Positions 22,449-26,029 of a stretch of 64,000 nt of DNA are shown piece by piece. The notes beneath the pieces were generated by a model. It searched no databases. It saw nothing but the letters and a program-made list of their open reading frames with translations, and had not been told where the DNA came from. The first letter of the stretch is position 1. Every line of letters starts with the position of its first letter. Source of the stretch: an uncultured Methanobrevibacter sp. (lineage in GTDB: Archaea > Methanobacteriota > Methanobacteria > Methanobacteriales > Methanobacteriaceae); contig CABQFB010000001.1 of the NCBI GenBank assembly GCA_902463315.1, positions 28,130 through 92,129 on the forward strand, written 5' to 3'. Position numbers and translations under genes: made by a program.

Positions 22449-23237
22449 ATGGCTTTATTTATAGGAGATTTCAAATCTAAACAATTAAGTAAAAGAACAC
22501 CAATCAGTGTAATTTTACCTGCAGATAATATCAATTTTTTAGAGGATAAAGATACAACTGTTAAACCGCCTTATAAAACATTATACCTGCTTCATGGGAT
22601 GTTTGGAAACAATGAAACATTTTTATATAATACTCAAATAAGGGCATATGCTGAGCAGAATAACTTGGCTGTGGTATTGCCAAGTTGCGGTAATTCATTT
22701 TACATAAATAAACCTAAGGCTTTTGAATATTTCTCTAATTATGTTGGTGAAGAGCTTGTAGATTTTACAAGAAAACTATTCCCGTTATCTACTAAAAAAG
22801 AAGACACATATATTGCAGGGTTTTCAATGGGTGGATATGGAGCTATAAGAACAGGATTACTTTACAATGATACTTTTGGAGCTATTGGCGGAATATCTTC
22901 AGGACTAATAACTCACAGACTTAATGAAGCTATTGATGATTATAAGCATATTATTGACTCAAGAGAGTTTGCCGAATCCTGCTTTGGCGATTTGGATAAG
23001 GTTGTCGGTAGTGATATGGATCCTATGCACATTGTAGACGAATTAATAGCAAATAAAAAAGAAATACCATGGTTATTCATGACTGTTGGTAAAGAAGATT
23101 TTCTTAGAAGAGAAAATGAAACTTTTCATGATTATTTAGTGAAAAACAATGTTCCTGTTTCTTTTAAGGAATATGAAGGAAGTCACACATGGGATTTCTG
23201 CAATACTCATATTAAAGAATTCATAGAATGGTTGTAG
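22449..23237 (+). CDS. Putative esterase (alpha/beta hydrolase, esterase D-like)
   Basis: GFSMGGYGA nucleophile elbow, and LYLLHG...GN..F in the N-terminal half. Confidence 0.7.
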   Translation: MALFIGDFKSKQLSKRTPISVILPADNINFLEDKDTTVKPPYKTLYLLHGMFGNNETFLYNTQIRAYAEQNNLAVVLPSCGNSFYINKPKAFEYFSNYVGEELVDFTRKLFPLSTKKEDTYIAGFSMGGYGAIRTGLLYNDTFGAIGGISSGLITHRLNEAIDDYKHIIDSREFAESCFGDLDKVVGSDMDPMHIVDELIANKKEIPWLFMTVGKEDFLRRENETFHDYLVKNNVPVSFKEYEGSHTWDFCNTHIKEFIEWL

Positions 23238-23248
23238 AGGTGACTATT

Positions 23249-24352
23249 ATGAAAAAGCTAAGTTTTGGTTTTATGAGATTACCTTTAGAAAATGATGAAA
23301 TAGATTACGATAAAGTATGCGAAATGGTTGATTATGGAATGGAGAGAGGATTTAACTTTTTTGATTCTGGTTATGAATACTGTGAAGGAAAAAGTGATAT
23401 AGCTATCAGAAAATGTGTAGTGGACAGATATCCTCGTGAAGATATTGTCATTTCAAATAAACTTCCAATTTACAGTTTTGATGAAAACACCAACATGGAA
23501 GATGTTTTCAATGAACAGCTAGAGAACTGTGGTGTTGAATACTTTGATTACTATATGCTTCACTGTCTTACAGACAAGATCTATGAAGGAGTTACAAAAG
23601 AATTGGATGGATTCGGTTTTGTTAAAAATCTTAAAGAAAAAGGTTTGATTAAAAAGTTAGGTATTTCCTTACATGATAATGCTGATGTTTTAGAAAGGAT
23701 CCTTAACCAACACCCTGAAATTGAATTTGTAATGCTTCAACTTAATTACCTTGACTGGATCAATGCCAGTATTCAATCAAGCAGATGTTATAAAGTAGCT
23801 AAAAAATATGGAAAAGAAATTCTGGTAATGGAACCATTAAAAGGAGGAACATTAGTAAATATTCCTGAAGATGCAGAAAAGATGTTTAAAAATCACCATC
23901 CTGATTTGTCAATAGCTTCATGGGGAATACGTTTTGCAGCTAGTTTAGATAATGTTTCAACTGTATTTTCTGGAATGAGCAATCTAGAGCAAATGAAAGA
24001 TAATATCAGCTATATGGAAGAGTTTAAGCCATTAGATCGGCAAGAACAAAAAACTATAAGAAAAGCAAGGAAAATAATTGCAGAATCAATTCCAATAGCC
24101 TGTACTTATTGCGATTATTGCATTCCAGTTTGTCCAGAGAATATTCTTATTCCTAAGTTTTTTGCAATCTATAATGATGCCAAAAATTCATTAGAGGCAC
24201 AGGAATTGCACAACATTTATTTTGAAAATTATGAAAGGGAAAATTCTCCTATTTCAGCATGTACTGAGTGCGGTGAATGTGAAGCTATTTGTACACAGCA
24301 CTTAAAGATAATTGATGATCTTAAGGAAGTTGAGAAATTCTTTAAAAAATAA
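23249..24352 (+). CDS. Aldo/keto reductase with a C-terminal 4Fe-4S cluster-binding domain
   Basis: AKR N-terminus (FGFMRLP) plus C-terminal CTYCDYCIPVCP and CTECGECEAICTQ. Start chosen at MKKLS behind the GGTGA Shine-Dalgarno. Confidence 0.75.
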   Translation: MKKLSFGFMRLPLENDEIDYDKVCEMVDYGMERGFNFFDSGYEYCEGKSDIAIRKCVVDRYPREDIVISNKLPIYSFDENTNMEDVFNEQLENCGVEYFDYYMLHCLTDKIYEGVTKELDGFGFVKNLKEKGLIKKLGISLHDNADVLERILNQHPEIEFVMLQLNYLDWINASIQSSRCYKVAKKYGKEILVMEPLKGGTLVNIPEDAEKMFKNHHPDLSIASWGIRFAASLDNVSTVFSGMSNLEQMKDNISYMEEFKPLDRQEQKTIRKARKIIAESIPIACTYCDYCIPVCPENILIPKFFAIYNDAKNSLEAQELHNIYFENYERENSPISACTECGECEAICTQHLKIIDDLKEVEKFFKK

Positions 24353-24427
24353 TTTATAAATATTAAAAATTTCAAATATAAAACATAATTGTATAGTATT
24401 AAAAATATTAACATGGAGAGGATTTAG

Positions 24428-26029
24428 CTGACAAAATTTATTATAATAACTGGAGGAGTAGTAAGTTCTATTGGTAAGGGCATCACCTCTGCTTCTATTG
24501 GTCGTATTTTACGTTCTTATGGCTTGAATGTTGCAGCAATCAAGATAGACCCTTATTTAAACTGGGATTCAGGCACATTAAATCCCTATCAGCACGGGGA
24601 AGTCTTTGTAACTTATGATGGTATGGAAACTGATCTTGATTTAGGTCATTATGAAAGGTATTTAGATGTTGAACTGCCAGGAATATCAAATATCACAACA
24701 GGTAAAGTCTATCAATCAGTAATCTCTAAAGAAAGAGCTGGAGAATATCTTGGAGATTGTGTACAGGTTATTCCACACATCACTGATGAGATTAAAGAGA
24801 TGATTATAAAGACTGCAGATATTGATGATTATGATGTTATTTTAATAGAATTAGGCGGAACCGTCGGAGATATTGAAAGTCAGCCATTTTTAGAAGCCTT
24901 AAGACAATTAAGAAATGATGTTGGATCTAAAAATGCAATGTTTGTCCATGTTACTTTTATACCCTACTTAAACGCTGCTGGTGAATTTAAAACCAAACCA
25001 ACTCAACATTCAACAAAAGAATTAAGAAGCGTTGGTATAAATCCAGATATAATAGTATGTAGGTCTCAAGAACCTATTGATGATGATTTAAAACGCAAAA
25101 TTGCTCATTTCTGTGATGTAGATAAAGAAGCTGTTGTAAACACTCCAGATGCAGGAACTATCTATGAGGTACCATTGGTTCTTGAAGAAAATAATATCGG
25201 TCAAATTATTGTAGACAGAATTGGTCTTAATGTTAAACCAGACTCCTCAAGTTTAGATTCCTGGAGAAGTGTTGTAGAATCTCTTAAAATTAAAGATCCT
25301 GTTGTAAGAATAGGTATTGTTGGTAAATATGTTGAATTAGAAGACGCTTATATAAGTATTCGTGAATCCTTGCTTCATGCAGCTGCCTCAATTGGTGTAA
25401 AAGCAGATATTGTCTATATAAATTCTGATGTTGACAAGCTAGATTCCGATGTTATGGATTCTCTAAACGGTATTTTAATACCTGGAGGATTTGGTGAACG
25501 TGGTGTTGAAGGTAAACTCCTAGCTATTGATTATGCTATTGAAAACAACATACCATTATTTGGAATTTGTTTGGGAATGCAGTCTATGGTAATTCAGTTT
25601 GCAAGACGAAACGGCTATCCTAATGCTAATAGTGCTGAATTTGATTTGGGAAACGAACATCCTGTCATTGATATGATGGAAGAACAGAAAAAAATCAAAA
25701 ACATGGGAGGAACTATGCGTTTAGGTTCATATGACTGTAAAGTTATTGAAGGAACCAAAACATTTGATGCATATCAGGAAACTGATATTGAAGAACGTCA
25801 CAGACACAGATTTGAATTCAACAACGATTATAGGAAAGATTTACAGGATAAAGGAATTATTATCTCTGGAACAAGTCCTGATGATTTTCTTGTAGAAATT
25901 GTAGAACTTCCTAACCATCCATGGGCTGTTGGTTGTCAATTCCATCCAGAATTTAAATCAAGACCAACCAGACCACATCCATTATTTAAAGCATTTTTAG
26001 AAGCTTCTTATGAAAATTCTAAAAATTAA
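24428..26029 (+). CDS. pyrG: CTP synthase (no canonical start codon at the conserved N-terminus)
   Basis: Conserved N-terminal TKFIIITGGVVSSIGKG and the C-terminal glutamine amidotransferase domain. The reading frame opens at CTG after an in-frame TAG; see findings. Confidence 0.8.
   Translation: MTKFIIITGGVVSSIGKGITSASIGRILRSYGLNVAAIKIDPYLNWDSGTLNPYQHGEVFVTYDGMETDLDLGHYERYLDVELPGISNITTGKVYQSVISKERAGEYLGDCVQVIPHITDEIKEMIIKTADIDDYDVILIELGGTVGDIESQPFLEALRQLRNDVGSKNAMFVHVTFIPYLNAAGEFKTKPTQHSTKELRSVGINPDIIVCRSQEPIDDDLKRKIAHFCDVDKEAVVNTPDAGTIYEVPLVLEENNIGQIIVDRIGLNVKPDSSSLDSWRSVVESLKIKDPVVRIGIVGKYVELEDAYISIRESLLHAAASIGVKADIVYINSDVDKLDSDVMDSLNGILIPGGFGERGVEGKLLAIDYAIENNIPLFGICLGMQSMVIQFARRNGYPNANSAEFDLGNEHPVIDMMEEQKKIKNMGGTMRLGSYDCKVIEGTKTFDAYQETDIEERHRHRFEFNNDYRKDLQDKGIIISGTSPDDFLVEIVELPNHPWAVGCQFHPEFKSRPTRPHPLFKAFLEASYENSKN

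Follow-up and report, generated by a model that had tools for sequence, protein, structure and literature searches.

At which codon does translation of pyrG, the gene of CTP synthase, begin in Methanobrevibacter? The question is raised by a stretch of 64,000 nucleotides from an uncultured Methanobrevibacter sp. (GenBank assembly GCA_902463315.1, contig CABQFB010000001.1, positions 28,130 to 92,129), here called the window, to whose numbering all coordinates refer. Read directly on the + strand, the 5' end of the gene consists of ATG (24413), GAG (24416), AGG (24419), ATT (24422), TAG (24425) and CTG (24428), followed by the codons ACA AAA TTT ATT ATA ATA ACT GGA GGA GTA GTA AGT TCT ATT GGT AAG GGC. 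Translation from 24413 gives MERI*LTKFIIITGGVVSSIGKG..., in which the conserved PyrG N-terminus, LTKFIIITGGVVSSIGKG, begins at the CTG. Direct reading and translation bear out an earlier sequence-only reading of the window, which had described this order of codons and had pointed out that the in-frame ATG at 24413 is closed by the TAG at 24425-24427. No in-frame ATG, GTG or TTG separates this TAG, the nearest stop upstream, from the conserved N-terminus, and the next canonical start is found at codon 33 (24524..24526, +). The sequence-only reading had taken codon 33 for an ATG and had stated that a start there would remove about 32 residues; the loss of 32 N-terminal residues, which include the GGVVSSIGKG nucleotide-binding loop, holds, but the codon is TTG (Leu of YGLNV) and the first in-frame ATG lies only at 24623 (codon 66, Met66). 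Two explanations had been put forward, namely non-canonical CUG initiation and a point error or mutation at the start codon. The comparative evidence presented here supports the former, and we consider it likely that the CUG at 24428 is the start codon of pyrG, that a Shine-Dalgarno (SD) element directs initiation to it, and that this is so across the genus.

From the CTG at 24428 the frame remains open for 533 codons and is closed by a TAA at 26027-26029 (coding sequence 24428..26029, +). Its product is identified as glutamine-hydrolysing CTP synthase by matches to NF003792 (795.9 bits, cut-off 308) and TIGR00337 (792 bits, cut-off 462.75; residues 2-526 correspond to profile positions 3-526) and by the low ratio of nonsynonymous to synonymous substitution rates (dN/dS) given below. 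The closest PyrG relatives of the window protein all belong to Methanobrevibacter. Codons 9-18 (24452..24481, +), which lie 5' of the first canonical start, encode GGVVSSIGKG, the nucleotide-binding loop of the synthetase domain, and are aligned with the GGV.SS.GKG motif of the structures 3nva, 1s1m, 1vcm and human CTPS. The class-I glutamine amidotransferase motifs GICLGMQ and CQFHPEF (Cys, His-x-Glu) are read in the translation, and the Pfam domains PF00117 and PF07722 are present on all close homologues. The CTG codon is aligned with positions 1-2 of the PyrG profiles and of solved CTP synthases. In the alignment, Lys3 falls on residue 2 of human CTPS1/2 and on residue 4 of 3nva, the Sulfolobus enzyme; the CTG is therefore placed where the homologues have their initiator methionine.

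One answer to the question would be that the locus is faulty, either through a sequencing or assembly error or through a recent inactivating mutation that has turned pyrG into a pseudogene. A one-base change would make the stop out of the codons that relatives carry at this place (TTT, TAT, GAG or CAT to TAG). However, the exact string ...aacATGGAGAGGATTTAG CTGACAAAATTT... is present in three Logan assemblies (L081-L083) and in an ENA human-gut contig (L106), all four from other strains of the same species, with 1-1.4% divergence from the window in the pyrG sequence. The NCBI metagenome-assembled genome (MAG) GCA_030539665.1 (L084), with 91% protein identity and a different intergenic region, still has ATGGAGAGGATTTAG CTG, which is common to all five. 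The same bases are thus seen in at least five independent assemblies, one of them separated from the window by a dS of 0.83, and as TAG-CTG is shared at this distance, the TAG therefore predates the split of these two lineages. The gene is also maintained: dN/dS is 0.06 for the pair window/L084 and 0.07-0.10 when more distant species are compared, with an overall range of 0.02-0.10 across comparisons, and the truncated 501-residue PyrG call that the window carries is on record from about 100 contigs (NCBI, ENA and Logan). On the strength of the independent assemblies and of dN/dS we reject error and pseudogene as extremely improbable. The sequence-only reading had expected an error to betray itself by an ATG at 24428, or by a missing TAG, in related strains. 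The opposite is seen, since C at 24428 and TAG at 24425 are found in three Logan assemblies, one ENA contig and one NCBI MAG. In more distant relatives the TAG is absent, the CTG is kept at the position of 24428 and an ATG is never found there except in one locus (L192).

For a wider comparison, metagenome contigs were scanned with a degenerate pattern for codons 2-10 only, in which the start codon and everything upstream were left free. About 40 of the 120 hits came from other taxa or arose by chance and were removed by requiring GGVVSS[IV]GKGI. A scan of genome contigs gave at least 4 Methanobacteriales loci, among 80 listed matches that were mostly bacterial pyrG. The metagenome hits and other retrieved loci together make up a set of 53 distinct Methanobrevibacter-type pyrG 5' regions. 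The codon at the CTG position is CTG in 45 of these, TTG in 7 and ATG in 1 (L192), and the other leucine codons TTA, CTT, CTA and CTC are found in none. At the control leucine residues 28, 33 and 44 of the same sequences TTA dominates and CTG occurs in 2 of 159 cases; CTG makes up 3.3% of the leucine codons in the open reading frames (ORFs) of the window. The frequency of CTG at the start position, set against its rarity elsewhere, is far from chance. Sixteen sequences possess an in-frame canonical codon upstream, and among these the position is again CTG (15) or TTG (1), so the restriction to NUG is not limited to lineages that lack an upstream ATG.

In 30 of the 45 distinct CTG lineages there is no in-frame ATG, GTG or TTG before the nearest upstream stop, and the ways in which this comes about differ. 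The leader of the M. olleyae group reads TAG GAG TGG ATT TGT CTG, with the TAG five codons upstream, several rumen lineages have AAG or ACG at the position of the ATG (AAG in L002), and the M. arboriphilus/termite group uses a different register, GGAGAGGATGTT CTG. A stop abuts the CTG in three separate clades, as TAG in the clade of the window, TGA in L145 and TAA in L200. This conservation pattern supports a putative CUG start as the rule for the genus Methanobrevibacter rather than a peculiarity of the window genome. Frameshifted pyrG genes in L123, L161 and L163, some from very long assemblies (VOFD01...), are probably assembly errors and not biology; these error-prone assemblies distort a quick tree and are to be disregarded there.

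The sequence just upstream of the CUG appears well suited to guide the ribosome there. The purine run GGAGAGGA occupies 24415-24422 and is separated from the CTG by 5 nt. It forms part of a predicted SD-type ribosome-binding site, GGAGAGGATTT (24415..24425, +), which is recognized by its pairing energy, its invariance in relatives and its unpaired state in the predicted fold. Pairing energies were calculated with a 3' tail of 16S rRNA assumed to be GAUCACCUCCU, from general knowledge and not from this genome. With this tail, the predicted anti-SD duplex upstream of the CTG amounts to -10.3 kcal/mol, with GGAG lying 9 nt from the CTG. This value ranks second best against the 38 ATG-started ORFs of the window, whose median is -3.8 kcal/mol, and is reached by 0.5% of random window positions. 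The complementarity to the assumed tail is shown by the sequence, and the proposal of the sequence-only reading that the purine-rich run serves the CTG as SD element is backed by pairing energy, spacing and conservation that is independent of the frame. GGAG (-13 to -10) and GGATT (-8 to -4) show no variation among the 37 distinct CTG sequences that share the common spacing, even at what would be third codon positions; at the true third positions of the following codons the mean major-allele frequency is 0.67. In the same 37 sequences the first two bases of the supposed ATG differ (A 22, T 15; and T 16, A 18, C 3), such that relatives carry ATG, AAG, ACG, TAG or TTG at 24413 beside the invariant GGAG. 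One-nucleotide changes of spacing occur between lineages, and where such single-base indels shift the frame the GGAG.GGATT motif keeps its distance of 11-13 nt to the start codon. The pattern is that of a binding site: the upstream 15 nt evolve as such and not as codons, as judged from these alignments.

We also scanned the window for other non-canonical starts, that is, CTG, ATT, ATA or ATC with a strong SD 5' of the first canonical start, and pyrG was the only real candidate. Of the remaining hits, some stood only 1-2 codons away from a canonical start and others were due to internal Gly-Gly codons of the GGAGGAG type; they were set aside. A stretch of the latter kind is present in pyrG itself (24449-24472), where it is SD-like (-9.3 kcal/mol) and is followed by an in-frame ATT at 24470; it is probably a by-product of coding.

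Could the start instead lie downstream of the TAG? In that case translation would begin at the TTG at 24524, giving a product of 501 residues (ORF 24524..26029) without the nucleotide-binding loop, or at one of the rare ATT/ATA codons at 24440-24448. The TTG is what gene callers restricted to ATG, GTG and TTG choose, and translation table 11 permits ATT and ATA as rare starts. The N-terminal codons, however, are observed to be under strict purifying selection. Between the window and L084, dN in codons 2-33 is 0 and the proportion of differing synonymous sites (pS) is 0.58, i.e. 58% of these sites have changed, and across 51 sequences from relatives the N-terminal amino acids are conserved with synonymous variation, the loop codons included. 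The low dN/dS of the gene and the absence of amino acid changes in codons 2-33 therefore indicate that pyrG is kept functional, and given the selection on these codons and the conserved GGVVSSIGKG loop that they encode, the 32 N-terminal codons must be translated. Nor does either candidate have a suitable SD: the pairing energy is -1.5 kcal/mol at the TTG at 24524, which amounts to none, and -3.1 kcal/mol at the ATT at 24440, which is poor and placed too far. Codon 33 is TTA in most relatives and therefore cannot be a conserved start. We have rejected the downstream TTG, ATT and ATA starts on the grounds of selection and lack of SD, and a start at any of them seems highly unlikely.

The in-frame ATG (24413..24415, +), which overlaps the ribosome-binding site, offers two further ways to account for the locus. 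One is that translation starts at this AUG and the UAG at 24425 is read through or recoded, by a suppressor tRNA or a pyrrolysine-like system, to yield the 538 residues annotated in relatives. Relatives are indeed annotated with the extension of five residues, and the residue at its fifth codon changes between them (F, Y, H, E, N), so that an inserted residue might be tolerated. Against this, TAG closes 8 of the 54 ORFs of the window, as expected of a normal stop, and no SD precedes the ATG (+0.6 kcal/mol). Moreover, the stop at this site is TGA or TAA in some other lineages, and in others the ATG itself has given way to TAG, a variety that goes beyond any single recoding system. The pyrrolysine system is not known to occur in Methanobacteriales; the window itself contains no tRNA genes, which is uninformative about the rest of the genome. 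As TAG is an ordinary stop in the window and TGA and TAA replace it in other lineages, recoding of the UAG was rejected, and we give it only a very slight chance.

The other way is coupled re-initiation, in which the ribosome would start at AUG 24413, translate a mini-ORF of four codons (M-E-R-I), stop at UAG 24425 and restart on the abutting CUG, which would still be the start of pyrG. The exact abutment of the mini-ORF and the CUG in the clade of the window fits such coupling; in the M. arboriphilus/termite clade another mini-ORF, ATG TTC TGA, is found out of frame, and its stop overlaps the CTG. However, an upstream mini-ORF is not universal: there is none in the M. olleyae-type leader, TAGGAGTGGATTTGT CTG, or in the variants with AAG or ACG. 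The missing SD of the ATG at 24413 also speaks against it, as the conserved element is the SD and not the ATG. Re-initiation is therefore unlikely, although it is the least improbable of these alternatives, and the ATG at 24413 is probably a non-functional start, with no SD and with a TAG four codons on. In the loci of the M. arboriphilus/termite-gut clade (L105, L109, L133, L144, L147 and L176) the leader reads GGAGAGGATGTT CTGA, and the overlap of its two-codon mini-ORF ATG TTC TGA with the CTG may reflect translational coupling or coincidence.

The reading that remains, SD-directed initiation at the CUG, may be pictured as follows. A short AT-rich leader would precede pyrG in the mRNA, and the small ribosomal subunit would bind the strong SD element GGAGAGGAUUU (24415-24425), which would bring the P site to 9 nt after GGAG. 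Initiator Met-tRNA would then pair with the CUG (24428..24430, +), directly 5' of the conserved TKF/Y-IIITGG, through a first-position mismatch, so that the codon is read as methionine and the product would be a 533-residue enzyme beginning with Met-Thr-Lys-Phe and bearing the N-terminal peptide (M)TKYIIITGGVVSSIGK. The ATG at 24413 and the TAG (24425..24427, +), the latter read directly and matched by stops in relatives, would belong to the untranslated leader inside or next to the ribosome-binding site; because this region would be untranslated, a stop is tolerated at 24425 and stops accumulate there in several lineages. The arrangement would be ancestral to most of Methanobrevibacter, with a NUG start, usually CUG, 11-13 nt after GGAG. 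That the ribosome starts at the CUG, that methionine is the first residue and where the 5' end of the transcript lies are all points that we infer from sequence comparison.

Several points weigh against initiation at the CUG. Support for the N-terminus and for the position of the ribosome is wholly comparative, the sequences compared are phylogenetically related so that Fisher tests of the codon counts overstate their independence, and the SD pairing energy rests on an assumed 16S 3' tail, as no rRNA was found in the sequence data searched. In the 15 CTG lineages with an upstream canonical start (mostly ATG, M. smithii included), a minor or alternative product could be made from that codon. 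In the bacteria tested, CUG initiates poorly, and our full-text search of the literature turned up neither an experimentally shown archaeal CUG start nor a description of one in Methanobrevibacter or pyrG, and no proteomic or ribosome-profiling data on this N-terminus. The statement of the sequence-only reading that archaeal CUG initiation has no established precedent stands as far as the literature was checked, yet in several genomes the NCBI pipeline has this CTG as the start.

The TTG variants give a further view of the start position. All seven (L003, L093, L101, L146, L149, L168 and L204) have GGAG at -12, as against -13 in most CTG variants. Among the 37 distinct lineages in which GGAG lies at -13, the common spacing, TTG does not occur at all; wherever TTG is found, the spacer is one base shorter. 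The TTG appears to have arisen by loss of the C (TTTAT-CTG to TTTA-TTG) and not by a C-to-T transition. In an AT-rich genome (G+C of the window about 30%) a C-to-T change would suffice to make the canonical TTG, yet the CTG persists, which hints that the CUG, or the pair of codon and spacing, may be selected rather than tolerated. It is conceivable, but in our view rather doubtful, that the CUG is actively kept as the start of pyrG, in which case pyrG would be the first essential archaeal gene with a conserved and selected CUG start. If so, the CUG could set a deliberately low or factor-sensitive translation of CTP synthase, comparable to the AUU of infC, or could point to an archaeal initiation machinery that, as in eukaryotes, prefers CUG to other near-cognate codons. 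The second codon (24431-24433) is ACA in 47 of 51 distinct sequences; its third base was free in the search pattern, and threonine codons in the rest of the gene are mixed. This suggests a possible constraint on the sequence context just 3' of the start codon.

The leader does not appear to add a layer of RNA structure. No Rfam match was found in 24100-24800 at E values up to 1, and the predicted fold of the leader has a minimum free energy of -8.6 kcal/mol with z = +1.03 against shuffles, which is not significant. For want of a match and of a stable fold, a riboswitch or attenuator in the leader was rejected. The ribosome-binding site is unpaired in the predicted mRNA fold and, with neither Rfam match nor significant structure, should therefore be accessible. 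In Bacillus subtilis, pyrG is subject to CTP-sensitive leader control by reiterative transcription and attenuation. The two cases are alike in that the same gene has its unusual features concentrated in the 5' leader; they differ in that the leader of the window has no terminator/antiterminator structure, has no Rfam match and is predicted to be unstructured, and nothing links the CUG to CTP sensing.

The intergenic region upstream of the ATG (24353..24412, +) is AT-rich and is tentatively regarded as leader and promoter region, with TATA-like TTTATAAATATT at 24354-24365 and AAATATAAAA at 24375-24384. In rumen relatives a AAATTTTTATATAT block is conserved some 55-60 nt 5' of the start codon (L001, L002, L088-L090, L102, L110, L116, L121, L139, L148, L160, L177, L178, L188, L189, L203 and L204), a block that resembles an archaeal TATA element and would imply a leadered mRNA. 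In rumen-type relatives it reads AAATTTTTATATAT(C/T)A and is followed about 10 nt later by ACTAAAATTATAA, the two spanning about -65 to -30 from the start codon. Together they are probably the pyrG promoter (B recognition element/TATA) and the region of the transcription start site. This rumen-type block is not clearly present in the intergenic region of the window.

The case belongs with near-cognate start codons and requires no new mechanism. Among its counterparts are ordinary archaeal GUG and UUG starts with an SD leader, which share its mechanism: the SD lies 7-9 nt upstream and the first base of the codon is mismatched with the initiator anticodon. Some pyrG relatives even use TTG, and one ATG, at the same site. 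What sets pyrG apart is the first base, C, which gene finders such as Prodigal refuse and which is very rarely annotated. The AUU start of infC (IF3) in bacteria is similar in that a non-canonical start is held by selection in one gene across many species. There, however, AUU is the sensor of an autoregulatory loop, with IF3 discriminating against it; no such loop is known for pyrG, whose sole hint of active maintenance is the retention of CTG in place of TTG. The nearest precedents for CTG are bacterial, namely the conserved start of rpsL (ribosomal protein S12) in Deinococcus-Thermus, which has been confirmed by mass spectrometry, and that of plasmid RepA in E. coli (PMC2830850). As in pyrG, a conserved N-terminus without preceding ATG, GTG or TTG is found in an essential or housekeeping gene, the CTG is conserved with a ribosome-binding site 5' of it, and callers mis-annotate the start. 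These systems are bacterial, with rpsL confirmed at the protein level, whereas the host of pyrG is an archaeon with a eukaryote-like set of initiation factors and the evidence is comparative. In an archaeal methanogen, Methanosarcina mazei, ribosome profiling (Ribo-seq) has assigned CTG as start in 5% of 314 unannotated small ORFs (PMC11456600), so CTG has been proposed as an initiation codon there as well. Those ORFs are short, mostly unconserved and assigned by software, in contrast to pyrG, a conserved essential enzyme with genus-wide comparative support. Translation of pyrG in Methanobrevibacter is a well-supported, genus-wide candidate for archaeal CUG initiation in culturable organisms (M. 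smithii, M. olleyae and M. arboriphilus).

The putative CUG start also makes sense of the disorder in database annotation, where one gene appears with at least three starts: 538 residues beginning MERIF..., 533/534 residues beginning MTK..., and truncations of 501-510 residues without the nucleotide-binding loop, as produced by Prodigal-type callers. Within single clusters of 90% identity, lengths of 501/509/510, 533/534, 537, 538 and 541-546 residues are given for the same gene. NCBI annotation independently sets the start at the CTG for the species of the window (WP_303247271.1, 533 aa, MTKF...), and it does so in further records, namely P0002 (from the MAG of L084, GCA_030539665.1), MBQ6511604.1, WP_405288852.1, M. 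olleyae MBE6513204.1 and M. arboriphilus WP_081720201.1. The CTG call thus exists in NCBI automated annotation, though inconsistently, and our finding is partly anticipated there. The 538-residue form with the MERIF N-terminus is annotated for M. smithii (A5UJH4), and MERIF is also found in M. woesei, M. gottschalkii and M. millerae, with the variants MERIN in M. thaueri, MERII in M. boviskoreani and MDV in M. arboriphilus. The extension of the MERIF type is most likely an artefact of the ATG inside the binding site, produced by callers that do not allow CTG, and the upstream ATG annotated as start in these relatives is probably not the start there either. Likewise, the MDV N-terminus of M. 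arboriphilus is probably an artefact, its GTG lying inside the SD.

Many Methanobrevibacter PyrG entries are truncated at the N-terminus (490-523 aa), CTG having been unavailable to the gene caller as a start; they include P0001, P0004, P0005, P0010, P0083, P0122, P0129-P0132, P0139, P0140 and P0146, and P0001 and P0213 carry the same 501-residue call as the window. Such a truncated PyrG would pass for a defective enzyme in metabolic reconstructions of gut and rumen methanogens. For gene finding in general, the locus illustrates how start prediction can go systematically wrong when an in-frame ATG falls within a ribosome-binding site.

Upstream of pyrG, an aldo/keto-reductase/ferredoxin-domain ORF (23228-24352) ends where the AT-rich intergenic region begins. 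It is 7 codons shorter in the calls of some assemblies (367 vs 374 aa). An esterase-like ORF (22449-23237, closed by TAG) precedes it and overlaps it by 10 nt (23228-23237).

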